A stretch of 64,000 bases of DNA, taken from positions 1,088,001 through 1,152,000 of the forward strand of contig OY759974.1 in assembly GCA_963662945.1 (NCBI GenBank), given 5' to 3'. Shown in pieces: positions 43,119 through 63,653 of the stretch (positions are counted from its first letter, which is position 1; each line of letters begins with the position of its first letter). The DNA comes from Arcobacteraceae bacterium (GTDB lineage: Bacteria; Campylobacterota; Campylobacteria; Campylobacterales; Arcobacteraceae). A program made the position numbers and the translations under genes. Under the pieces are notes generated by a model, which was given only the letters and a program-made list of their open reading frames with translations, searched no databases and was not told where the DNA came from.

Positions 43119-43137
43119 TTTAGATTACTTTTCTACT
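43106..43137. terminator. Hairpin spanning the hisIE stop and the displaced original mnmG stop
   Basis: AGTAGAGAAGTAAT-TTAG-ATTACTTTTCTACT, with one mismatch. Confidence 0.6.
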
Positions 43138-43147
43138 TCTTTTTACT

Positions 43148-43152
43148 TTTCA
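43148..43152. repeat. 5-bp target-site duplication TTTCA (hisIE side)
   Basis: Immediately before TGT at 43153; identical to 61761-61765. Confidence 0.9.
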
Positions 43153-43280
43153 TGTGAGATACAATAAAGTTTGAGAATGCTTGTAAAGTCATGTATGCTC
43201 CGTGTTTACTAAGTTATACTGGATTATAAAGTCAATTTACTAATAACTAAGTAAATATTTTATTTAATAAAGTTTGATAC
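43153..43280 (+). repeat. Outer transposon end (left-type, widely spaced TnsB sites)
   Basis: TGTGAGATACAATAAAGTTTGAGAAT at 43153; further site AATAAAGTTTGATA at 43266. Confidence 0.85.
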
Positions 43281-43305
43281 TATAGTGAATTTTGTATATT
43301 GCTCT

Positions 43306-43331
43306 TAACTATGAGGAGTTCCTCATAGTTA
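43306..43331 (-). terminator. Perfect hairpin at the end of the small-ORF pair
   Basis: TAACTATGAGG-AGTT-CCTCATAGTTA. Confidence 0.6.
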
Positions 43332-43466
43332 TTCATCTTCATCGATATAAGAATCATTATTTGGATTATGGACATCAGACCAATCATCCATGTCAGCTTC
43401 ATTATTTGGATTGTTAATATCAGACCAAATGTCTAATTCATCTTGAGACATATTTGAGGTATCCAT
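43329..43466 (-). CDS. 45-aa acidic protein with duplicated D.WSD..NPNN motif
   Basis: ATG at 43466 preceded by GGAGGT; corresponds to the C-terminal part of the track's 72-aa ORF. Confidence 0.65.
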   Translation of the reverse strand: MDTSNMSQDELDIWSDINNPNNEADMDDWSDVHNPNNDSYIDEDE

Positions 43467-43467
43467 T

Positions 43468-43614
43468 TTAATTACCTCCGCTTGAAGAGTTTTTTGATGC
43501 AGCTCTTTGTGCTCTTGCCGAAAAACTTCCTTTTGAGGTATTTCCACCTTTTTTTGCTGTACTTGATTGAATTCTTGCAGCAGCAGTTTTTGTCATTTGA
43601 CTTTTCTTTGTCAT
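43468..43614 (-). CDS. 48-aa basic small protein (SMP/LEA-like pattern), not in the ORF track
   Basis: AAAGGA RBS; MTKKSQMTKTAAARIQSSTAKKGGNTSKGSFSARAQRAASKNSSSGGN. Confidence 0.7.
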   Translation of the reverse strand: MTKKSQMTKTAAARIQSSTAKKGGNTSKGSFSARAQRAASKNSSSGGN

Positions 43615-43690
43615 AATATGATCCTTTAAATTATATTTCCCTTGCTAGAGATACTAAAATTATAAAACAAAATTTTATAGTCAATTCATT

Positions 43691-44731
43691 CTAATAGTGC
43701 CACTTTACATTTTTAGTCATATAATCAATCATTTTCTTTTGTAAATCTTTTTCTATATCAAAATCATTTAGGTCTTTACAAAAAGGAATACAATATTTAC
43801 CTAAGATATTTAAATCAAAATCTTTTTCATCTAATTCACAAAACATCTTCTCAAAATCGATACAGTAATTTGATTTTAAAACTTCAAGATCTTCTTTCTT
43901 ATTGTATTTTAATTTCTGCTGGATAATGGCTTTATAATTGTTAAGTTTTTCAAAAAATTGTCCTTCTTCTTTATCATCAATATTATATTCTCTTTTAATA
44001 TACAATAGTGCTCTTAGAATCAACATCAAAATTAATTGTGCTCTTTGTTCGTTTTTTTTGATATTTGAAAACAAGGTAACATTAATTACTAAAACTTTTA
44101 AAAACCCTGGTAACTCTCCATTCATCCATTTTGAGACATCATTAATAAATACTTTTTCTGATTGAATATCTTTTATATCTGAGTTATAATTTTCAGCCAT
44201 AGCCTCTGTTAGTTTAATAAAAATCTCATGAAAATCATGTGCAATTCCATTTTGAGTCTTATTGCTTTTTTGTATATAGTAATCAAGATATGGCTTGAAG
44301 CTTTTTTCCCTTAAAGCATCTTCAAAAATAGAAATATCAATATTTAGTTTTTTTATTTTTTCTATAATAAAAGCAATTTGAAAAGAAAATAATTTAATTT
44401 TTTTGTTATTATCATTAATACCATATATATCTAAGAATCTAAGTGTAAATGAAATATTATTTAGTTCCTTGATTAATTCTATACTTTCATCATTATCAAC
44501 TTTATAAAACAAGTTATTAAATAACAAATAAAACTCATTTGGTTCTTTGTATAAAGTTTCTAAAAATGCATCTATTCTCATATTAGTATTATTTTTAAAC
44601 TTATGGAACTTTTTTTTGGCAGGCTCTGTAAAACTATTTTTTATCCGAAAAACATCTTCCCATATATAAACTCTTTGATTAACTCCCCAAGTTTTCCAAA
44701 ATAATGCATTAAAATCTTTTATCATAATCAA
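43691..44731 (-). CDS. Hypothetical protein (possible HTH-like segment VSKWMNGELP)
   Basis: 346-aa ORF, no recognised family. Confidence 0.55.
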   Translation of the reverse strand: MIMIKDFNALFWKTWGVNQRVYIWEDVFRIKNSFTEPAKKKFHKFKNNTNMRIDAFLETLYKEPNEFYLLFNNLFYKVDNDESIELIKELNNISFTLRFLDIYGINDNNKKIKLFSFQIAFIIEKIKKLNIDISIFEDALREKSFKPYLDYYIQKSNKTQNGIAHDFHEIFIKLTEAMAENYNSDIKDIQSEKVFINDVSKWMNGELPGFLKVLVINVTLFSNIKKNEQRAQLILMLILRALLYIKREYNIDDKEEGQFFEKLNNYKAIIQQKLKYNKKEDLEVLKSNYCIDFEKMFCELDEKDFDLNILGKYCIPFCKDLNDFDIEKDLQKKMIDYMTKNVKWHY

Positions 44732-44807
44732 TATCCAAAATTTTATCTTTCATATTTAATAAAATCAATATCGATTATCAAACTTCTCTACTTCTTCCTA
44801 CTCTTCA

Positions 44808-44935
44808 TGTGATATACAATAAAGTTTGATAACAAAAGAAAGATTTTCAGTCCTTTTATTTCAAATTAAATCAATAGTTATATAGTAAATTTTCTGTAAA
44901 CAAACTAAAAATATATTTAATAAAGTTTGATAATA
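44808..44935 (+). repeat. Second, internal transposon end (left-type)
   Basis: TGTGATATACAATAAAGTTTGATAAC at 44808; further site at 44919, spacing similar to the outer end. Confidence 0.85.
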
Positions 44936-47227: not shown

Positions 47228-48973
47228 TTAAATATCTAGTATTTCAAGAATTTTACTTTCTAACCAATTTTTTCTATTTTCTATAGAAGTAGCATTCCAC
47301 TCCATAGGATAATCAGCAATAACTTTTTTAGTCATATCAAATGCTGTTACACCTGTATCATCTTCAGAATATTTACCTTTTCCTTTATAAATATTGATTT
47401 TTATATTATAAGGATTATTACTTGCAGAAATATTTTTTGAGCCACTCAATAGCGTTAAATTACCTAAACTATGTAAATATCTATTTACTTCATCTATAGT
47501 AAATTTATTTTTCCAATCATCAAATTCATTCCAACCAATTGGTAAAATGTGTTCTGTATGAATTGTATTATCTAAGTGAATGTACGCTAATTTTGCATCA
47601 TCTGTTATCCTATATTCTATTATTGTTAATAAAGGCTTTATCCATGCTGTATGATAAACATCATTACTATTAATCACTTCTTTAACTTGTTTTACAATAT
47701 TATCTTTTTCAAGTTTATTATTTAAACTAGTAGTTATATAGTTTATATGCTTTTTATCTTTTATCCATGAAATCATGTTAAATGAAATTTGTTTAATATG
47801 AGATAGTGTTTTTCCTGACATCCAATTTAAATAATAAAATCTTCTAAGAGAAATTTGTAACTCATCATAATATTCATAGTTTGTATGTAAAGCTGTAAGT
47901 AAAATACTCTTCCAGTATACTGTCCATCTTAAATACCAAAAGGAATAAAGTATTTTATCTTCCTTGTCCCAAATCTGATTTTTATAGGCATTAACAAACT
48001 CTGAAAAATCTTTTATGGTTTCATTTGGATCTTGTTGTTCAAAAATATCTTGCAATTCATCAGAAAGTGATTTTTTTGGATTTCTAGCAATTAAATAGTA
48101 AAGGTATAATGTAAACATATCGTTCATACTATCATATGTACCAGTTAATAAATTTTCTAAACGTCTCCATTCCGCAATAAACTCGTTTTCATCTTCTATC
48201 CTCGCTTCAAAATTTTCACCCTCATCAACATATTTTTTTTCTATTTGTTCTAATAAAAAGCTTTTTACTAAATCTGATGCAGTAAGGTCCATTCCCCTAT
48301 CATTTAAGACTTGAAATAGTTTTATTGCAAAACTTCTATCTTCACAATCTATTCTAATTATTGACACTTTATTAAATAAATATTCAATTAAATCTCCTGC
48401 TTTATCTTCACCAATCTCTTCAAGTTTACTTCTTAATATATAGGCACTATTTTGAAATTTCAACTTTGGTTGTTCATCATCCTTAAGTTGATACTTATAA
48501 GGTTTTTGATGCTTTAAAGTTGATCCCTCATTTATAATATTTTGTTTAAAGTCTGCAGAATGTTGGGGATCAGTAAGTAAAGTTAGTCTTTGATCACCAA
48601 AATTAAATATAGCACTGTTAATATGGTTTGTATTAATAGAATTTTTATTGTTATTAATATTAGGATATAAATCTCTTAATACACATAACAATATCATTAA
48701 AGTTGTTAACCTTTGTTGTCCATCAACAATATCAAATCTATTTGAACCCGCTTGCGGAGCTGCAGTAATTATTGAACCTAAAAAATAGTTTTTTGATTCA
48801 TTCTCAAATGATTCAAAAATATCATCCCATAACTGTTCAATTTGTTCATCTAGCCACTTATATGGTCTTTGATATTTAGGTATTCTATAAATAGAATCTG
48901 TATCCATAAAAAGTTGCTTTATTGTTCTTGATCTTGGTGTAAATAGTTCCAAATTATCCCTTTCATTAATCAC
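47228..48973 (-). CDS. DUF262-DUF1524 (GmrSD-like, type IV restriction) protein
   Basis: IPKYQRPYKW, IVDGQQRLTT and FQVLNDRG; C-terminal HNH-type EHILP and LGNLTLL...N. Confidence 0.88.
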   Translation of the reverse strand: MINERDNLELFTPRSRTIKQLFMDTDSIYRIPKYQRPYKWLDEQIEQLWDDIFESFENESKNYFLGSIITAAPQAGSNRFDIVDGQQRLTTLMILLCVLRDLYPNINNNKNSINTNHINSAIFNFGDQRLTLLTDPQHSADFKQNIINEGSTLKHQKPYKYQLKDDEQPKLKFQNSAYILRSKLEEIGEDKAGDLIEYLFNKVSIIRIDCEDRSFAIKLFQVLNDRGMDLTASDLVKSFLLEQIEKKYVDEGENFEARIEDENEFIAEWRRLENLLTGTYDSMNDMFTLYLYYLIARNPKKSLSDELQDIFEQQDPNETIKDFSEFVNAYKNQIWDKEDKILYSFWYLRWTVYWKSILLTALHTNYEYYDELQISLRRFYYLNWMSGKTLSHIKQISFNMISWIKDKKHINYITTSLNNKLEKDNIVKQVKEVINSNDVYHTAWIKPLLTIIEYRITDDAKLAYIHLDNTIHTEHILPIGWNEFDDWKNKFTIDEVNRYLHSLGNLTLLSGSKNISASNNPYNIKINIYKGKGKYSEDDTGVTAFDMTKKVIADYPMEWNATSIENRKNWLESKILEILDI

Positions 48974-49101
48974 AAATTATATATAAAAGTTATTTTATCT
49001 TAATAGTTGTAAGTAAAATGTTAAATAATTAAACTTCTAACTACCCTAAAAATTCATAAATTATGATATACTACTAAAATATGATAATAGGGAGAAATAA
49101 A

Positions 49102-49773
49102 ATGAGTAATAGTCATATTACTTTTCCACAAAGAAAAATCAAAAAAAGCTACCGTTCTGTTACTGGACACTTCCCTAGTATTAAAAACAATAAATCAATA
49201 GCATTTGAATCAAAACTAGAAAGTGAATTTTTTTTAACTCTTGAATTTGATGATAATGTAGCCACTTATCAAGAACAACCACAAATTGAAATTATTTTAG
49301 ATAATAAAACAACAACTTATAGTGCAGATTGTTATATACAAAGACCAAAGGGCTCTTTAAATCGTGATGCTCTTGTAGAAGTTAAATATACTACTGAATT
49401 GGAAAAAGAAAAAGAATATTTTGATAAGAAATTTAAAGCTATTGAAGCTTCTACTGAAGAACTTGATTTAGACTTTATAATTTATACAGAACTTCAATAT
49501 CCTCTAGAATATATTACAAATCTTAAATTTTTATATCGATATAGAACTCAACAAAGAGAAATGAGATATGATGAGATTATTAATGAACTATTACAAGATA
49601 AAAAATTATCTGCACATGAGTTAGCAGAAACTATCTCAAAAAATAAAGCGGAATATATTATTGTAGCAAATGCAATTTGGGGCTTAGTTGCAAATAATAT
49701 ACTCACAACTGATTTAAAATCATCTGAGATTAACATGAAATCTATACTGGAGAAAAATAATGGCTGTTGTTAA
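49102..49773 (+). CDS. tnsA: Transposon endonuclease TnsA
   Basis: FESKLE, YQEQP, YSAD and LVEVK (PD-D/ExK). Start placed at the ATG after GGAGA. Confidence 0.9.
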   Translation: MSNSHITFPQRKIKKSYRSVTGHFPSIKNNKSIAFESKLESEFFLTLEFDDNVATYQEQPQIEIILDNKTTTYSADCYIQRPKGSLNRDALVEVKYTTELEKEKEYFDKKFKAIEASTEELDLDFIIYTELQYPLEYITNLKFLYRYRTQQREMRYDEIINELLQDKKLSAHELAETISKNKAEYIIVANAIWGLVANNILTTDLKSSEINMKSILEKNNGCC

Positions 49774-51667
49774 ACTAACTCTAAATTCAACTATTGTTTT
49801 TGAAGGTGTAAAATATCTCATCAAAGGTTATGCTTCCCTTGATGAAGTTCTTGTAAAACAAATAGATCCACCTCATAAGGAAAAGATTTTAAAAGTTAGT
49901 GATATTATTAAAGAACCTCAAAACTCAACAGATAACATTCAAAGAGAACTTGTGGATACCAATGACAAAGAGTTTCAAAAAGCACTAGAGAGATACAAGG
50001 TAATAGAATCTTTAGTTGATATGCCAAGTAGAAACTCCAAAGAGGTACAAAAAGTTGCTAAAAAATATAAAAAAGGTGTAGCTACTGTTTATCGTTGGTT
50101 AAGTACTTTTGAAAAATTTGGTACTATTAGCTCATTGGTAGCTTCTTATAACAACTGTGGAGGTAAAGGGAAAAGTCGTCTCAATGAATCTGTAGATGCA
50201 GTTATAGACTCGGTACTTGAAGAACTATATCTCAATAAACAAAAATATGCTTTTCTAACAGTTTATAGAAAAATAGAGCAGCTATGTAAAAATCTTGAAT
50301 TAGAAGTTCCAAACAAAAACACGGTAAGAAGTAGAATCAAAGCACTAGACCCAAAACTTATCACTAAATATAGACATGGTGAAAAGATAAGAGATACAAG
50401 AGGAACACCTGGAAAGTTTCCAGAAGTAAAAATGCCCCTTGACGTTATACAAATAGATCATACTAAAGTTGATGTAATACTTGTTGACGAAGAGACAAGA
50501 GAAGAGATAGGAAGACCATTTATTACAGTTGCTATTGATGTATTTAGTAGAATGATATATGGTTTTTATATCTCTTATGAAGCTCCAAGTTTTTTTAGTG
50601 TTGGACAATGTCTTTTACATGCCATCTTACCCAAAGATGAAATATTAAAAAAATACAATGTAACTGGAGAATGGCCAGTTTTTGGTCTACCCCAAGCAGT
50701 CCATATGGATAATGGAAAAGATTTTCAATCAGTGAGTCTAAAAAAGTTTTGTCAAGAATATAGAATATCTGATATTTATAGACCCGTTGCTCGCCCAGAA
50801 TTTGGTGGAAAAATCGAGAGGGTGATAAGAACAGCAATGGAAAAAGTTCACGAATTACCAGGTTCAACATCTTCTAATATTCAGGACAAAGGAACCTATG
50901 ATTCTCAAAAAATGGCTACTATGACTATCAATGAATTAGAACAATGGTATACGGACTTTGTAGTAAATATTTATCATAAAACAATACATAGTAGCCTTGG
51001 TGTGACCCCTGAAGAAAAATTCTATGAGGGTATGTATGGAGTTAGTGGTGACTCTATACCTTTTTTACCACAAGTTCCTGCAGATACTATTAAACTAAAA
51101 ATGTCACTTCTTCCAGCTTTTGAAAGAACTGTACAAAAAAATGGAATCACAATAGACTATATAACCTATTTTTCCGAAACACTTAGAAAATGGATAGTAC
51201 CAGCAGCCTATAAAAAACTCAATAAGACTTCAAATACAATAACTTGCAGAAGAGACCCAAGAGATATTAGTAAACTTTATGTATATGACCCAGATATAAA
51301 TGATTATATAATTGTACCCTATGCTAATATTAAAAAGCCAGCTATGAACCTTACAGAGCTAAGAAGAGCTATTTCTGAAGCTAAGAAAACAGTAACAGGA
51401 AGAGAACTAGAATCATATGATATCTATGAAGCTTATGACAGACTTCACCAATATGTAGAAAATTCAAAAAGAGAAAAGAAGTCTGCAAGAAGACAAGCTA
51501 GTTCAAAAAAGCATTTAAAAAAGAATATTGAATACGAAAAACAAATCTTACAAGATGGTAATGGTCTTAAACAAGATGAGAAATCACTCCAAAACTCAAC
51601 AACTCATATCCAGAATACTTTTCAAGAAGAAGAGGATGATGGCTATGAATATTATCCAATTGGTTAG
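49760..51667 (+). CDS. tnsB: DDE transposase TnsB/TniA (Mu-like)
   Basis: HTH ATVYRW; QIDHT, GRP..T.AIDVFSR, DNGKDF, GKIER, RDPRDIS; acidic C-terminal tail. Confidence 0.93.
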   Translation: MAVVKLTLNSTIVFEGVKYLIKGYASLDEVLVKQIDPPHKEKILKVSDIIKEPQNSTDNIQRELVDTNDKEFQKALERYKVIESLVDMPSRNSKEVQKVAKKYKKGVATVYRWLSTFEKFGTISSLVASYNNCGGKGKSRLNESVDAVIDSVLEELYLNKQKYAFLTVYRKIEQLCKNLELEVPNKNTVRSRIKALDPKLITKYRHGEKIRDTRGTPGKFPEVKMPLDVIQIDHTKVDVILVDEETREEIGRPFITVAIDVFSRMIYGFYISYEAPSFFSVGQCLLHAILPKDEILKKYNVTGEWPVFGLPQAVHMDNGKDFQSVSLKKFCQEYRISDIYRPVARPEFGGKIERVIRTAMEKVHELPGSTSSNIQDKGTYDSQKMATMTINELEQWYTDFVVNIYHKTIHSSLGVTPEEKFYEGMYGVSGDSIPFLPQVPADTIKLKMSLLPAFERTVQKNGITIDYITYFSETLRKWIVPAAYKKLNKTSNTITCRRDPRDISKLYVYDPDINDYIIVPYANIKKPAMNLTELRRAISEAKKTVTGRELESYDIYEAYDRLHQYVENSKREKKSARRQASSKKHLKKNIEYEKQILQDGNGLKQDEKSLQNSTTHIQNTFQEEEDDGYEYYPIG

Positions 51668-51679
51668 GTTAGGTAAAAA

Positions 51680-52549
51680 ATGAATAATAGAATCTTAATT
51701 AAAGAAGCTGAAGAATATTTAACTAAAAGTGACGAAGAGAGAATTCTCTATTGTAAAAAAGATCATTGGATAGGATATGGAGCAGCTGTAAAATTGTTAG
51801 AACTTCTAGAAGATAAATTTGAAGACCCTCCACAAATGAGACATGAAGGGTTATTAATATATGGAGATCCTAATAATGGGAAAACTGCAATATTGAAAAA
51901 AATGTACAATTTACATAAAACCAATTTAGACTATGTAAATAAAGAAAATGAGATTGTCTATGAGATACCAATTATCTATTTTCAAGCACCTACAATTCCT
52001 GATGAGAGTAGATTGTATAGTTTAATACTCAATGAACTTTTGGTACCACACAAGCATACTGAAAAGATAGTAGAAAAAGCAAAATTATGTGAACACTATC
52101 TTAGAAAACTAGGTACTAAAATGATTTTAATTGATGAAATTCATAGTGCTCTAACAGGAAATCTCAATAAACAAAGAACTTTTATAGATGATTTAAAACA
52201 ACTAAGCAATAGACTTTCTCTAACGATTATCTTAGCAGGAACGAGAGAAGCACACTCAGCACTTTCTATTGGGAGTGAAACGAATACTAGATTTCCTTCT
52301 CTTGAACTTCCACGCTGGAACAATGATAGAAAGTTTAGATCTTTTGTAGCTACTTATGAAAGATGTTTACCACTTAAACTCGCTTCAAATCTGGCTGACA
52401 ATCCAGAGATTATGAATGCTTTATTTTATCAATCAGAGGGTTTAATAGGTAAGACTGTAAATCTTTTGAAAAAAGCAGCTGTAAAAGCAATCAAATCAAA
52501 AAGAGAATATATCATAGCTAGTGATATAGAGTACTTACCAAAACTCTGA
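51680..52549 (+). CDS. tnsC: AAA+ regulator TnsC/TniB
   Basis: WIGY, GDPNNGKT (Walker A), ILIDEIH (Walker B) and SEGLIG. Confidence 0.92.
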   Translation: MNNRILIKEAEEYLTKSDEERILYCKKDHWIGYGAAVKLLELLEDKFEDPPQMRHEGLLIYGDPNNGKTAILKKMYNLHKTNLDYVNKENEIVYEIPIIYFQAPTIPDESRLYSLILNELLVPHKHTEKIVEKAKLCEHYLRKLGTKMILIDEIHSALTGNLNKQRTFIDDLKQLSNRLSLTIILAGTREAHSALSIGSETNTRFPSLELPRWNNDRKFRSFVATYERCLPLKLASNLADNPEIMNALFYQSEGLIGKTVNLLKKAAVKAIKSKREYIIASDIEYLPKL

Positions 52550-52551
52550 TT

Positions 52552-53733
52552 ATGGCACAGTCAAAGAGAAATCAGGATTGGGTTCAAGACTATTTCTTTT
52601 TGATTATTCCAAAACTTCTACCAGATGAGTTATTAAGTTCATGGCTTACAAGATTAGCAATTGAACATAGATATAAACTTTCTGACTTTCTATCTTTATT
52701 TGTTAGAAAACAAGGACATAAAATCTGTAATATAGATATAGATTTTCAGTACAATGAAAAATTATTTCTAACCTTAGCTTTAAAAAGCAATATACCTATA
52801 AAAGATATTTGGAAACTGTCCCTTAGTAGTGAAGAGGGATATCTCTATTCCTGTAATGATTGCCTCTATCCTCCTAAACAAATAAGAAAATTAAAAGACA
52901 AAAGAACACACTATGGACTGATGTTTTGTCCAAAATGTTTAGCTGAAGATAAAATACCTTATTTTAGAAAAAAATGGAGATACTATTTTTATAATGCTTG
53001 TCCTAAACATAATATTTTTTTAACAGATAGATGTTGGTGCTGCTATGAAAGAATTTGTCTTCCTAAAATATCACATATGAAAGGTTTATCATATTGCAGT
53101 AGATGTGAAAAAGATTTAAGTACTACTATAGCAATACCTTTACAAAGTAATTATCAATATGCTTTAAAGGCTATACGATGGTTTGAAAAAGGTTTAAAAA
53201 AAGGCTATTTTATCATCAATCATCAAAAAGTAGCTTCTCTATTTGTCTTTGAAAGCTTCACAAATCTTTGCTTTTTACTTGATAGAAAAGAAAATTTAGT
53301 TTTAGATAACTTTCCAATGATTCAAGAATACGAAACAATATGTAAAAAACTTGCAAAATATGATTCTAAAAAAGCAACTTCTATACAAAAAGATTTTATC
53401 TTAACAGCAATGGTATATTTTTTATTTCAAAACTATCCAAAAAATATTCTAAGTTTTGCAGAAACTAACCATCTAACACATAGAGAATTTGTACATGGTT
53501 TTATAGATATCCCATATTGGTACAAAAATATAATTGACGAACTACTACCAGCACAAAATAAAATTGGTAGAGAGATAAGTGAAAGTGAAGTTAGAGCAGC
53601 TATAAAATATTTACAGAAACAGAATACTAAAGTAACACAGGAGGCAGTTGCAAACATTGTTGGCTGTCATTTTAGTATTCATAAGGGATTTGTGAAAATT
53701 TATAAAGATGCAAAAAAGTATTTGACCTTATAA
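52552..53733 (+). CDS. tniQ: TniQ/TnsD-family target selector
   Basis: PDELLSSWLTRLA, FCPKCL, W...CPKH...L.DRC, CSRC; C-terminal HTH-like TQEAVANIVG. Confidence 0.9.
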   Translation: MAQSKRNQDWVQDYFFLIIPKLLPDELLSSWLTRLAIEHRYKLSDFLSLFVRKQGHKICNIDIDFQYNEKLFLTLALKSNIPIKDIWKLSLSSEEGYLYSCNDCLYPPKQIRKLKDKRTHYGLMFCPKCLAEDKIPYFRKKWRYYFYNACPKHNIFLTDRCWCCYERICLPKISHMKGLSYCSRCEKDLSTTIAIPLQSNYQYALKAIRWFEKGLKKGYFIINHQKVASLFVFESFTNLCFLLDRKENLVLDNFPMIQEYETICKKLAKYDSKKATSIQKDFILTAMVYFLFQNYPKNILSFAETNHLTHREFVHGFIDIPYWYKNIIDELLPAQNKIGREISESEVRAAIKYLQKQNTKVTQEAVANIVGCHFSIHKGFVKIYKDAKKYLTL

Positions 53734-53734
53734 A

Positions 53735-54736
53735 CTAATCCTTGATTTTATCAAATAAGTCAAACTCTATTGTATATTTATTAATTCTAAAATACCCTTC
53801 GCTTGATGATGCAGAGTAAGAATCAGTAAATGGGTAATGTATATGTAAATTTATATCCTGATTATCATAATATTCATTCTCAAATATATAAAATAAAGCA
53901 ATTCCTATAGTTTGCGCTTTTGTTGCTAAAGGAGCTAAATGAATATTGTTAACTGCACTTTTATTTATAGATACATATTTTTTAACATATTCTGAAATAA
54001 CATGAGCTGTAATAAATGGGTTATTAGCAGGAGCATAAAGCAATTCTGTATTTTCTTTTATACCAAGTTCAGTTTTTGATTTTAATAAATTTAATATATT
54101 TTCTTGATACATAATAGCTTGCAAAGAAGGAAAACCAATTAATGGTTTAATTTCATTTGCTGTGACATTACGTATAACTTTATTAACCAATTTAGAATCA
54201 TATCCTACATTTACTATAAATAAATCATTTTCTCCTGATTTTGAGTATGTTTCGTATGGTGAGACAATATTTCTTGATTCAACAATATTATCAGAAAATT
54301 TTGTTTTATCACTTTTTAAATATCTCTGAGGTTCTGTATAAATTAAGTCGAATTTATCGATTCCCTTTTCTTTAAACCAAAATAAAAGAAAAACTAAATA
54401 AGGCTTATTAAAACCTGTTGTATCTATACAAATTTTATCCTTATCAGTAATATTTATATATTTTTCACACATGGCATTAATATATTCAGATTCTTTAATA
54501 TTATGATTAATTATATTATATTCAAAGATTTCACCATTAATTTGGGAAGTATCTATATTGTATTCTGGGAAAATTAAATATATCTTTTTTTCTGCCTGTA
54601 TATTATCATATGTTTTAATGACAATATCTTCTTGTGTGTATGCAGAGATAAATAAATCATAATTTTCAATATCTGTAGAAAACTCTTCAAAGCTTCTATA
54701 AGAATCATAATTAAAAAGATGATACTTACTAATCAT
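53735..54736 (-). CDS. Hypothetical alpha/beta protein, last gene of the four-gene cargo operon
   Basis: ICIDTTGF, YTEPQRY, GFPSL and LAPLATKAQ motifs. Confidence 0.65.
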   Translation of the reverse strand: MISKYHLFNYDSYRSFEEFSTDIENYDLFISAYTQEDIVIKTYDNIQAEKKIYLIFPEYNIDTSQINGEIFEYNIINHNIKESEYINAMCEKYINITDKDKICIDTTGFNKPYLVFLLFWFKEKGIDKFDLIYTEPQRYLKSDKTKFSDNIVESRNIVSPYETYSKSGENDLFIVNVGYDSKLVNKVIRNVTANEIKPLIGFPSLQAIMYQENILNLLKSKTELGIKENTELLYAPANNPFITAHVISEYVKKYVSINKSAVNNIHLAPLATKAQTIGIALFYIFENEYYDNQDINLHIHYPFTDSYSASSSEGYFRINKYTIEFDLFDKIKD

Positions 54737-56745
54737 TATAAAGTATCTCCAAATAAACTAGGAGTAATAAAAGAAAGCACTTTTTCTTTTTTGTTGAAAG
54801 GGGCATTATATCTTGACATATACTCTTTATGAATATTTAGCCATTCTTTATCTTCACCTTTACATAATATCTCTATATCATCAGCTTTAAATTGAAAAGT
54901 TCCTCCTATAGCAATATGCAAATCCCATTTTGCTGTTAAGATTGCAGGGACAGAATAACTATCCAACATCATTCCAGAGTTATTTTTTTCTTTTTTATCA
55001 ATACTTTTTTTTATTAGTAACATATGATTAACTGCTTTAGTAAGAATTGACTCTGATTCCTCTGATAATGTACCCTTATAGGAAAAAGCAATCAATGTTT
55101 TCTCCGTAGGTTTATTTGACATTCGAAATGCTTTAAAAAAACTATTTATTCTCTCTATCATTTTAATAACGAGTTTATTTTCTATATCTATAATTGCATA
55201 AGTCCAAAACTCATCTGAAGCATCTTTTATTGCTTTATATTGAGTTTTACATTTTATGGGATTATTACTATCAAACATAGGTTCTTCAGAAAATTTAGAA
55301 TTAATATAAATTTCACTTAATATCAACATTAAATTTCTAGGATTTGCATGCGAAAAATCAATTATTTTTTCAAGACCACAATTAAAAAATGTTATCGAAT
55401 AATCTCTACAAATCTGAAAGTAAAAGGTATTTTTTAAATGCCTAAGAGTTTCATTATCATGAATATTTTTAGAACTTCCTTCCATTGAACTTTTAATTTC
55501 TATACTTTTTTCAACTAAATTCTTGTTTTTACTCCAAGCTTGATATAGCAACCATATATTTTCTTTTTCTTTAAGTGGATCCATTGGACAAAATAAATTA
55601 TCTATTATAATTGATATTTCATCTAATGATAAACTTAATTCTTCTGAATATTCTTCTAACTGTTTTGATAAAGTTAAAAAATACTTTCTATCTTTCGAGT
55701 CAGGATGAATATCTAATACTTTTTTGATTATTTGATTTTCATTTAATTTTTGAAAAGAATCAATAAGAGCTTTCTCATCTAAATTAGCAAGATTTTTATT
55801 AAGTCTTTTTCTAATTAAATTAATAGCAAACTGTTTATAGTTGTTTGAATTATCAAGGTATGTTTCTAAATATTTTTTCGTTACTTCTGCATATGAATTT
55901 TTTTCATCATCTGAAAAAGTTTTTTCTTCTTTTATTGAATATAATCTACCTGATATTCTTATTGAAATTCTTTCTGAATATTTAGGGTGTCTTAAAATTG
56001 TATTCACAAAAACTTGCTGTTCTTTACTTAAATCTTCAAACTGGTCTAATAAAAATAAGAATCGAACATCTTTCAAAATCTTACTAGAATCTAGTATATA
56101 ATAACATATATCATAGAACATATTCGATCTTGTATCGAAAACTACATCAATATCAAGAGAATCTTTAAATCCTGTACGTAATCTCGAAAAAGCCCTATCA
56201 ACTTTTTTATGTTCTTGTCGGATTTTTTTATATATATACTCTATTGTAATTGTTTCATCAACTGAATCAAAAAAACACTCATTATACATACTAGAAACTT
56301 TTTCACAGTCTATATCATCTAACCCATTTAGCTGTAAATCTATTATTTGTTCTAAAAATGCTTCAATCAAAATTAAATTAAAATAATAAAAATACCACTC
56401 TTCCCAAATTGACTTATCTAATTTTGAGCCACTAAATCTTTCAAACTGAAAGTTTCCTAATTCTAATAGTAAACTTGTATATTTATCCTCTTTAATTTGC
56501 TCTAATATGGATCTATGTGTCGTTTTTAAAGCTCTAATTTTTTGAGCCTTATAAGAGCAATATCGTAAAATGTGAGTTTTCCCACTTCCTTTTCCGCCTA
56601 ATATTATTAAAGGTCTAGGATTTGTAGGTTCAATTACATCCAAAAACTTTTTATGTTCAATTTCATCATTTAATTCAACCCAAAAATTAACTATTTCATC
56701 ATTATTTAAATGAACAGCTTTAATATTTGAAAATGGATTATTCAT
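54736..56745 (-). CDS. Large P-loop ATPase (STAND / ORC-Cdc6-like)
   Basis: ILGGKGSGKT (Walker A), FLLDQFEDL (Walker B) and NPRNL. Confidence 0.8.
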   Translation of the reverse strand: MNNPFSNIKAVHLNNDEIVNFWVELNDEIEHKKFLDVIEPTNPRPLIILGGKGSGKTHILRYCSYKAQKIRALKTTHRSILEQIKEDKYTSLLLELGNFQFERFSGSKLDKSIWEEWYFYYFNLILIEAFLEQIIDLQLNGLDDIDCEKVSSMYNECFFDSVDETITIEYIYKKIRQEHKKVDRAFSRLRTGFKDSLDIDVVFDTRSNMFYDICYYILDSSKILKDVRFLFLLDQFEDLSKEQQVFVNTILRHPKYSERISIRISGRLYSIKEEKTFSDDEKNSYAEVTKKYLETYLDNSNNYKQFAINLIRKRLNKNLANLDEKALIDSFQKLNENQIIKKVLDIHPDSKDRKYFLTLSKQLEEYSEELSLSLDEISIIIDNLFCPMDPLKEKENIWLLYQAWSKNKNLVEKSIEIKSSMEGSSKNIHDNETLRHLKNTFYFQICRDYSITFFNCGLEKIIDFSHANPRNLMLILSEIYINSKFSEEPMFDSNNPIKCKTQYKAIKDASDEFWTYAIIDIENKLVIKMIERINSFFKAFRMSNKPTEKTLIAFSYKGTLSEESESILTKAVNHMLLIKKSIDKKEKNNSGMMLDSYSVPAILTAKWDLHIAIGGTFQFKADDIEILCKGEDKEWLNIHKEYMSRYNAPFNKKEKVLSFITPSLFGDTL

Positions 56746-57729
56746 TCAACTATTTCCTTTTTTTAAAAGCATATACTTTTTACTATATCGTTTAAATATT
56801 GATTGCCATTGCTTATTATTTGCCCAAAATATGGGAAGACTATTATTAGGAATATTATAAAAAAACCCTAATGCTAATTGGCCATCAGCAAATCCACACT
56901 CGTCCTTATTTAATTTTTTATTTTCATCTCTACTAATATCTTCATTTCCTAACTCAAACTTTTTTGAATAAGTATTTACACATAGTTCTTTAAATTCTTC
57001 TTTACAATTAGAAATAGTTTGAAAATATCTAGAAGTATCTGAAAAAACCTTATATGTCTCATCCAATTCAAAAATAGTATCAACATTATCAAATAGTTTT
57101 GAATCTTTTAGAGTTTTTAATGCTGTAGTAGTTGCAAATAGCGTGAAATATGAAATTTTAATTTTAGGAACTTTAGTTCTAATCTCTGAAATAATTTTAT
57201 GAAAACTTTCATTAGTTGCCTGACTACCACTACCACTTATATCATCAATATAAATTAACTGTTCTAGTTCATTATATTTTTCATTAACTATTAGTTCACA
57301 AGAATGAATAAATAATTCCTTTGGAATATTATTTCTTTGCCTAAAAAAATAAAGTATTATACTACTACTTTCTGATGGATTACCAATACTAGAAAATCTA
57401 GTTTTTAATAAGCTGTCATCTAAATATTCATTGTAATCATTTAACTTTAATGATTTCATTTCTTTTCTATATTTCTTTACTAAAGGAGCAATATATTTAT
57501 CTTTATATAATGATTTTAAAGCCTGTTTTATTTCTCTCTGATCATAAAACATAAATTGACTAAGAAGACTTAACGCAATAAACTTATTTTTATTTCTTTT
57601 ATCAGAAACTTCTTCAAAGTTCTTTAACCATTCTTCTATATCTTGTTCTAAAACTTTATGTCCCCATAACCATGTTGATAAATCTTGTATTTGGTCTTTT
57701 AACTTTTGTATTTGATTATTATATGTCAT
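56746..57729 (-). CDS. Phosphoribosyltransferase-fold protein (conflict-system type)
   Basis: PRPP loop IYIDDISGSGSQ, ESS motif and C-terminal GF...NIPNNSLPIFW. Confidence 0.78.
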   Translation of the reverse strand: MTYNNQIQKLKDQIQDLSTWLWGHKVLEQDIEEWLKNFEEVSDKRNKNKFIALSLLSQFMFYDQREIKQALKSLYKDKYIAPLVKKYRKEMKSLKLNDYNEYLDDSLLKTRFSSIGNPSESSSIILYFFRQRNNIPKELFIHSCELIVNEKYNELEQLIYIDDISGSGSQATNESFHKIISEIRTKVPKIKISYFTLFATTTALKTLKDSKLFDNVDTIFELDETYKVFSDTSRYFQTISNCKEEFKELCVNTYSKKFELGNEDISRDENKKLNKDECGFADGQLALGFFYNIPNNSLPIFWANNKQWQSIFKRYSKKYMLLKKGNS

Positions 57730-59092
57730 TATTTTTCTTAAATACTACAATATATTCTCTAGAAATAACACTAGCAGTTTTATTCCTTTTTGTCATTAAT
57801 CCTCGAGATTTAATATCATCAATTAAAATTAACTCTGTTGAAAATCCAATTTTTTCAGCAATCTTTATTAAATATTTATGGGTCATAAACTCATACCCTG
57901 CAATAGTATTATTACCAATTACCATCACAAAATAACCATTATTTTTTAAAACTTTATAATAATGAGTAAAAGATTCCTGCATTTCAAGTAAGTATTTATA
58001 TGTAATATAGGCTCGTAACTTATTTTTTTCATAAATCTTTAATAATATTTTATCAATTTTATTTATCCCAAAAACATGTAACTTGTCATATTCTTTTTTT
58101 GGAAAGTGTTCTCTACCAATTGATTGCTTATCTAATTCAGCAATCGTAGAATTATTTAGCTCTAGCCACTGTAAACTTAAACTAGAAGCTCTGATATATT
58201 TTTGTGCACTAACATAAGGAGGTGAAGTTAAAATCAATTGAACCGTATTTTTTTTAATATCTTTTTTTGTTAAATGTTTAATATCACTATTATATACAGT
58301 AACTTCATTTGAACTTAACATTGTACTATTTTGATATTCAACAAGTCTAGCTATATTCTTATTGGCTTGTTCAATAAAAAATTCAAAAACTTTACTTTTA
58401 TCAATAAATTTTAAATTTTTTATAGCAGCTTCTCTAAGAGAATGACCTTCTGGAAATTTATCTTTATTAATTTTTACTGGTACTGAAATTCTAGGATCAG
58501 AATAACTGAACTTTTTACAACAAATAGAAAAAACTACCAAATAAAACTCTTTTATATTTTGATCACTAATTTGACTAACGATATCTTTAATTTTAGATAA
58601 TTTTCGCATATTTTGTTTACTATACCAATGTTCTATATTTGACACTTTAGGTATATGATATTGTTTTTTAGAGCTGCTATAAATTTCAAAAAGATTTTTA
58701 ATATTTTCTAACTCTTGTTTTAAATTAATTATATCTACTTTGGAAGTTTTTGTTTTTGCAATTAAAGCAGCTAGTGGATTAACATCAACACCTATTGCAT
58801 TTCTATTAGCAAGAGATGCTTCTAATAGTACTGTTCCTGTTCCACAAAAGGGATCTACTACTATATCTTGTTCTCTAGAAAAAACTGTATTATTTAAAAA
58901 AAAATATGGTATTTGCTGTAATAACTTTGCAGGATAAGAATGTATAAAATGAGTATGTCTATCCATATTTACAATACTAGGTACTAATTCTCTAAAATTA
59001 ACAGTTATTGGTTCTTGATTCTCTTTATATTTATTTATTAATTCTAAAATATAATTATCAAAAAAACTAATACCCTTATATTGTTTATTCAT
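57719..59092 (-). CDS. Site-specific DNA amino-methyltransferase (N4-C likely)
   Basis: THFIHSYPAK, DPFCGTGT (motif I) ahead of TSPPY (motif IV). Confidence 0.88.
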   Translation of the reverse strand: MNKQYKGISFFDNYILELINKYKENQEPITVNFRELVPSIVNMDRHTHFIHSYPAKLLQQIPYFFLNNTVFSREQDIVVDPFCGTGTVLLEASLANRNAIGVDVNPLAALIAKTKTSKVDIINLKQELENIKNLFEIYSSSKKQYHIPKVSNIEHWYSKQNMRKLSKIKDIVSQISDQNIKEFYLVVFSICCKKFSYSDPRISVPVKINKDKFPEGHSLREAAIKNLKFIDKSKVFEFFIEQANKNIARLVEYQNSTMLSSNEVTVYNSDIKHLTKKDIKKNTVQLILTSPPYVSAQKYIRASSLSLQWLELNNSTIAELDKQSIGREHFPKKEYDKLHVFGINKIDKILLKIYEKNKLRAYITYKYLLEMQESFTHYYKVLKNNGYFVMVIGNNTIAGYEFMTHKYLIKIAEKIGFSTELILIDDIKSRGLMTKRNKTASVISREYIVVFKKNNDI

Positions 59093-59167
59093 TACTGCCC
59101 CAATTAATTCTTAATTTGTTAATATAACAAATTCAAGCTGCTATTAAGATAAAATGGTAAGTAAATT

Positions 59168-59947
59168 TTAAAATTCTATTTCAATACCTATTGGACAATG
59201 GTCAGAACCTTCTATTTCATCTAAAATAAAAGCATCTTTTAGTTTATTTTGTAAATCACTAGAAATAAAAATATAGTCAATTCTCCAGCCTTCATTTTTT
59301 ACTCGTCCTCTTGATCGATAAGACCACCAAGTATAAGCTTCTTCTTTTTCTCCATGAATCTGTCTATAGGTATCTATATAACCTACTTGGATAAACTTAT
59401 CTACACACTCCCTTTCAATATCAGAAAATCCAGACTTACTATATATTTTAGTTTTTTTTAAATCAATATCTTTATGTGCAATATTAAAATCACCACAGAT
59501 TATTATAGATTTTCCATCAGCTCGTAATTCTTCACAATGTGAAAAAAATTTATTATAAAAATTAATTTTAAATTCTAATCTTTCTTTTGATATCTTGCCA
59601 TTTGGAAAATAAACATTGAAAACTACTATATTTTCATAGTGTTGCTCAATAACCCTACCTTCCATATCAGCATCAACTAATTCACAAGTATTTTCTCTGA
59701 CGAAATCTATATTAGAATATGTCAAAGTACCAGATAAACCTTTCGTAATACCACTATTTACTGTAAAATTTTTATACTGTTTATTAAAGCTTTTAGGTAT
59801 TTCTTCTTTTATTGCTTTAATCTCTTGTAGACATAAAATATGAGGATGGATTTCATCAACCCAAAAAAAAGAATCTTTTTTTGCAGCAGCTCTTAAACCA
59901 TTAACATTCCATGAAAATATTCTTATTTTTTCTTTTAAAGTTTTTAT
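59168..59947 (-). CDS. xth: Exodeoxyribonuclease III / AP endonuclease (no canonical start codon)
   Basis: Frame is open upstream of the track's ORF through FSWNVNGLRA and LCLQEIK; NVYFPNG, GDFN, GWRIDY and GSDHCP. Confidence 0.88.
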   Translation of the reverse strand: MKTLKEKIRIFSWNVNGLRAAAKKDSFFWVDEIHPHILCLQEIKAIKEEIPKSFNKQYKNFTVNSGITKGLSGTLTYSNIDFVRENTCELVDADMEGRVIEQHYENIVVFNVYFPNGKISKERLEFKINFYNKFFSHCEELRADGKSIIICGDFNIAHKDIDLKKTKIYSKSGFSDIERECVDKFIQVGYIDTYRQIHGEKEEAYTWWSYRSRGRVKNEGWRIDYIFISSDLQNKLKDAFILDEIEGSDHCPIGIEIEF

Positions 59948-59963
59948 TAATATTTCCTATTAG

Positions 59964-61670
59964 CTATAAAAATATCTTTCCAATTAATCCAACTACCCAT
60001 TTAAACTTTTCATTATCAGTTAAATTTTCATTTCTCTCATGATTTTTTGTAGTGAATTTAATAGAACTCTCTTTATCTTGTTTTTTCATAGTATTTATTG
60101 CTTCAAGATCTTTAAAATGACGTGCTATGAAAATATGAAAATCACTATCCAAAATCTTTTGTTCTGATACCAATATCCAACTACTAGAAGCTGATGAAGG
60201 ATAATTTTCAAGTTCCAAAATTCCTACATGGAAATTTTTATAAATAAACGTTGCAGTTAAATACTGTCTAGGTCTACCATGCATCATACATTTAGAATTT
60301 ATATCTTCTGTATCTTTGATTGTAACTTTTGGCAACTCTTTTACCTCACTTAAATAAAATGATATTATCTCTTTTTGTATTTTTAAAAAATCCATGTATT
60401 GTCTAAATACTACAAAATTATCTATCTCAGATAAAGGCTTTGACTCATTCTGCTCTTTTTCAAAATTACTTGATACGACTACTTTTCTAATTTTTTTCTT
60501 CCCTTTTGTAGAAGACTCTGTTAGACTTTGATCAACTGCCTCATCAGATTGATGTTCTTCATAGATTTTAAATAAATCAATTATAGTCTCTTTAGTTACC
60601 GTCTCACTTTCAATTTCAATACCTTGAAGACTTCCACAAGTTTTTCTTTTTTCTTTTTGATGTTGAGTCTGAGTATTTTTTTTACTAGCAGCTTCAACTT
60701 TTAAAATTTCTGTTGTTTCATCTGGATTTTCTATATCTACTTTTGGTAAATTTTCTAATTCATCAATATCTGTTATTACCTTGTCTTTTTCATAATATTT
60801 AGTAAATTTATCAAAACCAATATCTGAATAATCATTTGTTATCTCATGCACATAATAAAATTCTTCATTTGTATCATCATTTTTCAATAAAGCTGCTCTT
60901 GTTTCAATTTTAAATATTTCTTTTATAGGAAACTTTACTTTAATAGGAACTGTCTTTATATCTTCTTTTTCTGGATAATTGTCATGCATAAACTTTAAAT
61001 AACTATGTATATACTTTGCAACATCTTCAAAAGCATAAGTTGCATCAGACTGACAGGCATATCTGTGAATAAAAGCAGCATCTGCATCTATTCTTGGATA
61101 TCTTAGTACAATTGAAGCATCATCCCTATCACAACAACAACCACTATATAGGTCATCTAATTTACATTTTAATACTGCTTCTCTTAAATGGGTAAATCTA
61201 TAGTAAAAGTAAATTGCAACTGCATAGTGGGGGATAATAATATTTACATTATCTTGTTTGAATAAATAACAATAGTTATACTTAGCTTCTTTTAAAAATT
61301 TTCTTTTCCAACCTATTAGTGAAACTATACTTTTTTCATCAAGTATTTTATGTAAATGTAAAGTATTGCTTTCTGCCAAATGTGTCGTATCAATAAGAAA
61401 GCTTTTTTCAGTTATATCTTTATTCGTATAATATTTAGTTTTGTCACCCTTTAGAAATGATTTTTCTAAAGGATAGTGGGTAAACAAAAGTTCAGGTGAC
61501 ATTTCATATAAAAAAACTTCTTTTTTTGTTATATTTTTGACTACAACATCAAAATGACTTTGACTATATTCTTCATCATCAAGTCTTAATCTAAGAGGAA
61601 AAAGTATTTTAAAAATATCTGTAGGATTATCTACCATAAATTCAGGGATAACACTCTTAGACTTTGACAT
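59964..61670 (-). CDS. TnsE-like target-selection protein
   Basis: By-eye colinear similarity to Tn7 TnsE as recalled: IIIP..., YYVHEI, NFVVF...FL, ELPKV, GRPR, ILELE, KNH. Similar length (568 aa). Confidence 0.7.
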   Translation of the reverse strand: MSKSKSVIPEFMVDNPTDIFKILFPLRLRLDDEEYSQSHFDVVVKNITKKEVFLYEMSPELLFTHYPLEKSFLKGDKTKYYTNKDITEKSFLIDTTHLAESNTLHLHKILDEKSIVSLIGWKRKFLKEAKYNYCYLFKQDNVNIIIPHYAVAIYFYYRFTHLREAVLKCKLDDLYSGCCCDRDDASIVLRYPRIDADAAFIHRYACQSDATYAFEDVAKYIHSYLKFMHDNYPEKEDIKTVPIKVKFPIKEIFKIETRAALLKNDDTNEEFYYVHEITNDYSDIGFDKFTKYYEKDKVITDIDELENLPKVDIENPDETTEILKVEAASKKNTQTQHQKEKRKTCGSLQGIEIESETVTKETIIDLFKIYEEHQSDEAVDQSLTESSTKGKKKIRKVVVSSNFEKEQNESKPLSEIDNFVVFRQYMDFLKIQKEIISFYLSEVKELPKVTIKDTEDINSKCMMHGRPRQYLTATFIYKNFHVGILELENYPSSASSSWILVSEQKILDSDFHIFIARHFKDLEAINTMKKQDKESSIKFTTKNHERNENLTDNEKFKWVVGLIGKIFL

Positions 61671-61694
61671 TTTATTTTCTTATTTTATTCTCAA

Positions 61695-61760
61695 TATCAA
61701 ACTTTAATAAAATCATTATCAAACTTTATTGTCCATTATCAAACTTTTTTGTTTCTTACA
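61695..61760 (-). repeat. Transposon end (right-type) with three closely spaced TnsB sites
   Basis: TATCAAACTTT at 61695, 61717 and 61737; minus strand starts TGTAAGAAACAAAAAAGTTTGATAAT. Confidence 0.9.
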
Positions 61761-63653
61761 TTTCATATCAATATGCAAATGAATAATATCCACAGCACTC
61801 GGTGTAACCCCACTTATTTGAGAAGCGTTAAAAAGTGTTGGTGGATTGAACTTTTTAAGCTTTTCTATAACTTCTGTTGAAAGTCCAGGGAGTTCATCGT
61901 AGATAAAATCTTCTGGTATCTTTAGATTTAACATCTTTTTCATTTTCTCTATCTGTTTTTGTTGTTTATCCACATATCTATAGTATTTTGCTTCCACTAT
62001 CACTTGCTCCTTTAAATAGTCATCAAGAGAAGCAAAACTAGGAACGAGTCTATCAAATTTTTCTTTTGTGATAGTGTTTCTTCCTACTAAATCTACGAGT
62101 AAAATTTGGTCTGAAATTTTATCTTCCCCTAACTCTTCAAGAAGTGCTAGGTTTTCTTTTTTTGATGTGAACCACTCATTTTCCATAAACTCAATAGCAT
62201 CTTTGATAGTTTGTTTTTTGTGTTCCATAGTTTTAAATGTATCATCATCTATAAGTCCAAAATCATGTCCATACTCCATAAGTCTCATATCAGCACTCTC
62301 TTCTCTTAAAAGAAGTCTGTACTCTGCTCGACTTGTAAACATTCTATATGGTTCATTTGTCCCTTTTGTTACAAGGTCATCTATTAAAACTCCAATATAA
62401 CTCTCATCTCGTCTTAATATAAAAGGCTCTTTACCATCAATTGCTAAACTAGCATTTATACCCGCCATTAACCCTTGCGCTGCTGCTTCTTCATATCCAG
62501 TTGTTGCGTTGATTTGTCCTGCTAAATAAAGATTTTTTATCTTTTTTGTTTCAAGGGTATGTTGCAATTCTGTTGGGTCTATGTAGTCATATTCTATGGC
62601 ATAAGCATATCTTACGATTTTTGCATTTTCAAGCCCTTCTATTGAGTGTATCATCTGCTTTTGTACATCAATAGGTAAACTTGAACTAAGCCCATTGATA
62701 TAATACTCTTCAGCTCTTTTTGTTTGTGGCTCTAAGAAAAGCTGATGTCTTTCACGTTCAGCAAATCTATTTACTTTATCTTCAATACTTGGACAATATC
62801 GTGGACCAGTCCCTTCAATTTGTCCTGTAAAAAGTGGTGCTCTATCAAAATTACTTCTTATAGTATGGTGAGTATCAAGATTTGTATATGTAATATAACA
62901 AGGAAGTTGCGTAGGATGAAACTCTTCTTTGTTTGTTCTAAAACTAAATGGATGTGGATCTTCATCTCCCCCGTGTGCTTCCATAACTGAAAAGTCTATT
63001 GAGTTTACATTTATCCTTGCAGGAGTTCCTGTTTTTAATCTTCCTACATTAAGACCCAATATTTTTAATTGGTCTGAAAGTGTAGTTGATGGTAATTCCC
63101 AAGCACGACCTGCTGGATATTGATTTTCACCAATGTGAATTAATCCTTTCATAAAAGTACCTGTAGTCAAAATAACTTTTTTTGCTTCAAAAGTTTCCCC
63201 AAGTTTTGTCTCTACTCCAAATACTGAAAGTTGATTATCTTGTGCATCTACTTTTAAAGCACTCACTTCATCTTGATATACATCTAAATTTGGAGTATTT
63301 AACGTAACATTTCTCATATATTCTCTATATGCATCCATATCAATCTGAGCACGACTTCCTTGAACTGCTGCACCTTTAGAAGCATTTAAAATTCTAAATT
63401 GAATACCAGTTGCATCAGTACACAATCCCATCTCACCACCAAGGGCATCTAGTTCTCGAACTAAATGTCCTTTAGCAAGTCCTCCAATAGCTGGATTACA
63501 ACTAGCTGCTCCTATTTGTTCCACTAACATAGTTATAAGTAAAGTTTTTTTACCCATTCTTGCAGCTGCAAGACTTGCTTCTATTCCAGCATGTCCCCCA
63601 CCAACTACTATAACATCATATTGTGATGATTGTTCTTGTGTTTGTTTTGTCAT
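61719..63653 (-). CDS. mnmG: tRNA U34 carboxymethylaminomethyl modification enzyme MnmG/GidA; last 13 aa encoded by the transposon end
   Basis: [32 protein letters not shown] and [11 protein letters not shown] motifs. Confidence 0.98.
61761..61765. repeat. 5-bp target-site duplication TTTCA (mnmG side)
   Basis: Immediately after ACA at 61760. Confidence 0.9.

Follow-up and report, generated by a model that had tools for sequence, protein, structure and literature searches.

A Tn7-like transposon at the 3' end of mnmG in an Arcobacteraceae bacterium, with a new MnmG C-terminus that is probably a tolerated by-product of insertion

Tn7 inserts downstream of the glmS stop codon, and some integrative elements and prophages use the 3' end of a tRNA or protein gene as their insertion site and make up for the displaced end by a copy of their own. 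Here we describe a Tn7-like transposon in a stretch of 64,000 nucleotides (nt) from an Arcobacteraceae bacterium (GenBank assembly GCA_963662945.1, contig OY759974.1, positions 1,088,001 to 1,152,000 of the forward strand; hereafter the window, to which all positions refer), which lies inside the coding sequence of mnmG and whose end provides the last codons and the stop codon of that gene. Like the 3'-end-inserting integrative elements, this mobile element supplies the new 3' end of its target gene, but those elements bring along, as part of the attachment (att) site, a copy homologous to the gene end, whereas here the new end is a transposase-binding terminal repeat, there is no homology requirement and two frames are used. 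Our preferred reading, to which we give a probability of roughly 80%, is that a Tn7-like transposon occupies a dedicated site in mnmG and that the new C-terminus is a tolerated by-product of insertion at a safe site, not a selected coding feature.

The closest described system is Tn7 at attTn7, and the passages on it in PMC11406308 allow a direct comparison. As there, the element of the window has a heteromeric transposase of TnsA and TnsB, TnsC, a selector with a TniQ domain and a second selector that is putatively TnsE-like; termini of TGT, a duplication of 5 bp, and repeats set close to one another at the att-proximal end and further apart at the other; and a selector that would target the conserved 3' part of the coding sequence in a housekeeping gene of essential type, faced by the right-like end. 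Unlike Tn7, it has mnmG and not glmS as target, it lies within the coding sequence, at a point 2-10 codons short of the native stop, exchanging the tail, and its tnsABC-tniQ operon lies mid-element and points to the att-proximal end, while the TnsE-like gene on the other strand adjoins that end. In having a home site inside a coding sequence it resembles the Tn6022 / AbaR family, Tn7-like elements whose site is comM; the sections on this group in PMC11014353 and PMC11406308 also report that TnsE homologues are common in it, and PMC11014353 that Tn6022 inactivates comM. Tn6022 interrupts that gene and needs an extra selector, TnsF. In contrast to comM in Tn6022, mnmG loses only its last unconserved residues and stays open, and no TnsF-like gene was noted in the element of the window. 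Having TnsA plus TnsB, TnsC/TniB plus TniQ, TGT...ACA termini, repeat arrays at both ends, a 5-bp duplication, and site- and orientation-specific insertion beside a conserved gene (11 of 14 places; 46 of 47 junctions within a 4-nt span), the element is, in every respect examined, a Tn7-like transposon.

The chimeric mnmG open reading frame (61719..63653, minus strand) encodes 644 amino acids (aa), of which residues 1-631 are native and residues 632-644, with the stop, come from the transposon end. Across the junction (marked by a slash) the minus strand reads ...ATT GAT ATG AAA / TGT AAG AAA CAA AAA AGT TTG ATA ATG GAC AAT AAA GTT TGA, where TGT (61760-61758) is the transposon terminus and TGA (61721-61719) the stop, and the 13 element-encoded residues and TGA take up the first 42 nt of the mnmG-proximal end (61719..61760, minus strand). 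The displaced native tail, AGT AAA AAG AAG TAG (SKKK*, the asterisk denoting the stop; 43133..43147, minus strand), lies 18.6 kb from the mnmG body and 14 nt from the convergent hisIE stop (43116-43118), and the reverse complement of 43133-43152 reads TGAAA AGT AAA AAG AAG TAG, the 5-bp duplication followed by native SKKK*. An initial annotation of this DNA had placed the insertion inside the mnmG coding sequence after ATG AAA, had read the end in frame through 13 residues to a TGA within the second TnsB site, in place of SKKK*, and had remarked that the first new residues are Lys-rich as in the native tail; rereading the minus-strand frame, locating SKKK* at the far side and finding the TGA within the repeat at 61714-61726 confirmed these points, and all of its statements on the sequence itself hold; insertion within mnmG, with the final residues and the stop drawn from the transposon end, is also general in the family. 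Contigs of three runs from the same organism, possibly the assembly source, showed zero differences and zero indels over 61300-62300, and a relative of about 95% identity from an independent metagenome run has the identical junction, free of indels; because these agree, the mnmG frame across the run of six A residues is not an assembly slip. The native part of the protein matches the MnmG equivalog model TIGR00136 with 867 bits (cut-off 524.85) over residues 12-629 and profile positions 1-613 of 616, and alignment to MnmG chains in PDB spans residues 11-627 of the chimeric protein. The junction falls after residue 631, and the family model stops at about residue 632.

The mnmG-proximal, right-like end (61692..61760, minus strand) consists of the terminal TGT and three close transposase-binding repeats with spacings of 20 and 22 nt. 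The 13-nt repeat AAGTTTGATAATG is exact at 61734-61746 and 61714-61726 and has one mismatch at 61692-61704. Two further ends of the same type are present in opposite orientation, at 43153 (TGTGAGATACAATAAAG, exact) and 44808 (one mismatch), and the far, left-like end of the large element (44808..44935, plus strand) consists of TGTGATATACAATAAAG and spaced repeats at 44822-44834 and 44923-44935. The repeats are close together on the mnmG side and about 100 nt apart on the other, and close spacing is a mark of the Tn7 right end in the part of PMC11406308 on transposon ends. The target-site duplication TTTCA is found in unstranded copies on the mnmG side (61761..61765) and on the far side (43148..43152), and the outer ends of the element are 61760 and either 43153 or 44808.

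Orthologues of tniQ with 51-64% identity were present in 15 of 401 genomes of the order (this one counted), at 16 places and in several families, and for 14 of the 15 places beyond that of the window we retrieved the DNA downstream of tniQ over as much as 20 kb, the fifteenth (genome G320; our handles for genomes begin with G and those for loci with L) being at a contig end. The mnmG 3' end was convergent downstream of tniQ, in the same orientation, in 11 of the 14, and two more occupied mnmG sites (G452 and G455) were found among 30 family loci sampled for mnmG tails. A metagenome scan with the alignment of the TnsE-like protein gave 59 loci, 36 of them preceded directly by an mnmG end that has the same orientation, and a TniQ scan of genome contigs gave 2 loci, both in Campylobacter metagenome-assembled genomes, where the sequence covered reaches mnmG at neither. 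Judged from these loci, the mnmG 3' end is the home site of the transposon family. A conserved nucleotide block, GG..T.AC.CC....GC..T.GAT.T..T.CAT, lies 19-55 nt upstream of the junction and would, on the model of TnsD, probably be the site read by TniQ; in the passage on attTn7 of PMC11406308, TnsD reads the 3'-end coding sequence of glmS. Further structures were seen around such insertions. G392 and G050 (L043/L035 and L047/L039) have tandem arrays at mnmG, in which the 5-bp duplication of the mnmG-proximal element is followed on its outer side, without a gap, by a second right end; and G290, whose mnmG site is already occupied, holds a second copy (L034, contig C49, about 13750-14150) at a clearly different locus, beside a small unrelated gene and with a degenerate terminus (TGG for TGT).

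We compared 47 distinct junctions, which remained after three duplicates and one unusable record were dropped and which are phylogenetically non-independent. The offset from the His codon to the element start was 18 nt in 24 junctions, 17 nt in 19, 20 nt in three and 38 nt in one, so that the end is read in the frame of the window (frame A) in 24 cases and in a second frame (frame B, offsets 17 and 20 nt) in 22, and lies after the native stop in one. In this last case, the metagenome locus L122, the element stands two bases past an intact native mnmG stop (offset 38 nt versus the usual 17-18), and therefore the family can land outside the mnmG coding sequence too. Frame-A tails have 4 residues (8 junctions), 5 (4) or 13 (12), and frame-B tails 6 residues (16 junctions) or 7 (6). 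Near-identical ends occur in both frames: G290, L106 and L108 read IFIKIH-CKKQESSIMAKKD* and L110 reads IFIKIH-VRNKKVR*, with an identical host context and identical first 48 nt of the end, one T apart, and L093 versus L118/G153 is a second such pair. The stops are provided by TAA or TAG at end positions 13-15 (..CAATAA..) and by the TGA-TAA of ..TGATAAT... Of 12 mnmG-proximal ends, eight close frame A in 4-5 codons and the other four in 13, and all 12 close frame B in 5-7 codons. Of 11 far ends, which are never translated as MnmG, nine close frame A within 4 codons, and every one closes frame B within 5-6. Reading from random positions in the element stays open for a median of 9 codons, with 60% of runs of 13 codons or fewer, and from the base composition of the ends one stop is expected in about 9 codons; the 13-codon read-through of the window is unremarkable, because chance open runs are similar. 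The end in the window is a derived form. It differs from the ends at 43153 and 44808 at 3 of 17 positions, and the difference that the initial annotation had noticed (CAAAAAAG versus CAATAAAG) amounts to the loss of a family-typical in-frame TAA: positions 13-15 are now AAA, and as a result the tail has 13 residues instead of 4 and ends at the next in-frame stop, the TGA of the second repeat.

These data bear directly on the idea, put forward in the initial annotation, of a dual-coding end that selection maintains for the sake of MnmG function, in which case its first 15-42 nt would be under selection both as transposase substrate and as a native-like, Lys-rich tail with a timely stop. Such selection would fit with the fact that all 47 junctions are counted as ending the protein within 4-13 element-encoded residues, but 60% of random positions in the element close within 13 codons as well, stops occur equally in the untranslated far ends, and the stop triplet at end positions 13-15 is rarer where it acts (in frame in 8 of 24 frame-A ends, out of frame in 14 of 22 frame-B ends) and is lost in the end of the window; with Fisher p = 0.075 and related samples, this comparison shows just a lack of enrichment. 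It would also fit with tails that are rich in Lys, Asn and Gln like native ones, one of which (CKKQ*) is native in G416, but A-rich DNA yields these residues in any frame. Nor does the use of the frames agree with it. The two are nearly equal (24 versus 22) and near-identical ends serve in both, and across the junctions compared the frame proved variable, the outcome that the initial annotation had itself named as refuting the idea. We therefore consider this explanation very unlikely, and dual-coding selection of the transposon end is not supported by the junctions compared.

The native tails past the junction position at 26 empty family sites are of 2-10 residues, variable and Lys-rich (e.g., GK*, AKK*, NKK*, GKKQ*, SKKQ*, AKKK*, TRKQK*, SKKVIVK*, KRKIKEAKET*), and mnmG is open as far as the junction in every occupied genome examined. 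This supports the view that the insertion point, where the conserved core of MnmG gives way to a variable tail that is disposable, is a safe site, and we infer that MnmG stays active with its new tail. If instead the altered tail impaired MnmG or its pairing with MnmE, insertion would be mildly harmful and occupied sites would persist only on account of the cargo, which pays for it. The 13-residue element tail, longer than any of the 26 native tails sampled, would suit such a cost, and a restored-looking native-type tail copy on a truncated right end (see below) could record a past repair of the tail; but the intact gene up to the junction, the occupation of the site across several families of the order, and a tail region that the family model does not cover and in which neither length nor sequence is conserved all argue the other way, and we regard a harmful insertion as very unlikely. 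As a separate observation, the native tails at L064 (G416, CKKQ*) and L065 (its congener G439, SKKQ*) match the terminus of the G034 element at 16 of 16 and 14 of 16 nt, yet behind both comes an ordinary terminator, with no repeats. We rejected as unsupported the possibility that the G416 tail is a transposon scar; a clean terminator follows the tail, there are zero repeats, and the congener has a 14/16-identical native tail.

In the preferred reading, a safe-site insertion with the new tail as by-product, TniQ would most likely bind the highly conserved coding DNA for ...SGITPAAIDIxH, by analogy with TnsD at glmS, and would direct insertion to a fixed point, 17-18 nt beyond the His codon, where 5 bp are duplicated. 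The native tail (SKKK* in the window) would then be cut off and translation would enter the transposon end until the first stop, the A/T-rich transposase-binding repeats at both ends being such that they close frames A and B within 4-13 codons, and an unconserved Lys-rich tail would be exchanged for another tail encoded by A-rich DNA. The anatomy of the element, its site specificity, the variation of the frame and the origin of the stops are observed, and it is the binding by TniQ that we infer here. Several observations weigh against this reading. No mnmG was found within 20 kb of tniQ at 3 of the 14 places (G209, G199 and the second G290 copy). The far ends were called by similarity, and a matching 5-bp duplication was found in just 5 of 12, namely in the window and in G034, G392, G255 and G050; for G256, G153, G213, G029, G371, G290 and G267 no far end with duplication could be fixed. 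The third frame was used in none of the 47 junctions, as dual coding would also have it, and some frame constraint may therefore exist, yet the junctions are non-independent and the offsets probably follow the TniQ lineage. Position 8 is A or C in 41 of 47 mnmG-proximal ends (T or G in 6) and, by eye, T in most far ends, and A or C there makes the third codon Lys or Thr and not Ile; a coding reason for this bias is unlikely, because frame-B elements share it without effect on that codon. Finally, frame-A tails of the type CKKQ* resemble native SKKQ*, GKKQ* and the native CKKQ* of G416, a likeness that mimicry would predict.

The first gene inside the mnmG-proximal end is a putative TnsE-like gene of 568 aa (59964..61670, minus strand), which is co-directional with mnmG and starts 48 nt past the new stop. 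All 11 related elements have a homologue in this first position, with 25-57% identity. The protein of the window has zero matches in Pfam or NCBIfam; among 10 aligned members, three have a match to Pfam TnsE_C, the best with an E of 3.7e-4, and the window's own copy has none, and some UniRef homologues bear the name TnsE C-terminal domain-containing. For an AlphaFold2 model with a mean predicted local distance difference test score (pLDDT) of 77.9, the top 7 Foldseek matches in PDB were all TnsE C-terminal domains, with probabilities of 0.99-1.0, E values of only 2.8e-3 to 4e-2 and template-modelling scores, TM(target), of 0.52-0.65, and a profile search of PDB sequences with this protein gave chance-level matches only, TnsE being absent from them. 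We therefore read the gene as a TnsE-like second target selector, on support confined to the C-terminal domain. It is a conserved core gene of the transposon family, and its N-terminal approximately 300 residues (about two thirds) have no assigned family.

The position of this gene suggests another role for the insertion point. Selection may act on insertion within the coding sequence, upstream of the mnmG terminator, with transcription of mnmG expressing the TnsE-like gene and the tail being incidental. This is consistent with the placing of the gene, first and co-directional with mnmG in the 11 genome relatives and in the 36 metagenome loci with mnmG upstream, with a 48-nt gap between the new stop and the TnsE-like ATG that holds no terminator-like site, and with a native terminator in G416 just past the native tail, downstream of the insertion point; but the repeats form promoter-like hexamers at 61742-61715, and the gene may therefore have its own promoter, and one junction lies past the native stop. 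We consider capture of mnmG transcription unlikely as the reason for the site, and it would be compatible with the tail as a by-product.

The far side of the element has a tandem structure. A small element of 1.6 kb, a remnant or passenger (43153..44785, plus strand), has a left-like end at 43153 (repeats 43167-43179 and 43270-43282) and lacks transposition genes, and neither of its two frames, of 346 aa and 72 aa, has a family match; we ruled out the 346-aa frame as a decayed TnsE-like gene (hhalign probability 0.2). Its inner side keeps a right-end remnant, consisting of a repeat (44773-44785) and the spacer GATTTTATTAAA, which is also present at 61702-61713, and its terminus is missing. A diverged second copy of the mnmG tail (44782..44807, minus strand) reads ..TG AAG AGT AGG AAG AAG TAG (KSRKK*), with a match by eye of 22/26 nt to the native flank, and is fused to the right-end remnant via an AAGT common to both (44773-44807), on the outer side of the left end at 44808, which it adjoins. 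The fused remnant and tail copy are not explained by plain tandem insertion. The fusion could stem from a past replacement of the terminus of the end by DNA of a strain with an empty site, and may record a repair of the tail by foreign DNA. A wider version of the transcription argument would join these features: by inserting inside mnmG before its terminator, and not in intergenic DNA, the family would hijack the constitutive transcription of a housekeeping gene, and possibly its terminating ribosomes, for the TnsE-like gene, the A-rich repeats would be tolerated as a surrogate Lys-rich tail, and 44773-44807 would be a fossil of repair from the host side. We hold this combined scenario to be rather improbable.

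The transposition genes lie on the plus strand in the order tnsA (endonuclease, 49081..49773; Pfam Tn7_TnsA-like_N, 4.1e-10), tnsB (transposase, 49760..51667; Pfam Mu-transpos_C, 2.2e-11 and 44.0 bits, above the cut-off of 21.7 bits), tnsC (TniB-type AAA+ ATPase, 51680..52549; Pfam TniB, 2e-51) and tniQ (TnsD-like target selector of 393 aa, 52552..53733; Pfam TniQ, 4.1e-22). An rve match of tnsB (3.4e-07, 30.9 bits) stays under the curated cut-off of 32.6 bits, and NCBIfam gave zero matches for the TniQ protein or for the small unassigned frames. A cargo of five genes fills the interval from tniQ to the TnsE-like gene (53735..59725, minus strand), encoding a CARF-like protein, an ORC/CDC6-like ATPase, PRTase-CE, a DNA methyltransferase and an endonuclease/exonuclease/phosphatase (EEP)-fold protein; G256 has homologues of all five in the same interval, with that of the EEP protein on the opposite strand. 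The first three form a module (53735-57729, minus strand), whose CARF-like member matches the PADLOC CARF6 model (2.2e-89), and which is probably a defence system of nucleotide-signal type. Between the far end and tnsA, further cargo comprises a GmrSD-type nuclease (47228..48973, minus strand) and three unassigned frames.

In the literature searched we found neither mnmG/gidA as a Tn7-like site nor Tn7 in Arcobacter, the main texts of two large surveys being silent on this while their supplementary tables may list mnmG. On element-supplied stop codons in Tn7-like elements, the search yielded no more than the legend of a figure, in a preprint on archaeal Tn7, that deals with end-to-stop distances. 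With the site described here, mnmG joins the list of conserved genes that serve as Tn7-type home sites, and the case for an evolved dual-coding end becomes a useful negative result. A safe site can sit a few codons inside a gene when the tail is disposable. The mnmG site is used across several families of Campylobacterales, and knowing it helps to annotate defence islands, and as an orientation-specific safe site it could serve genetic tools.

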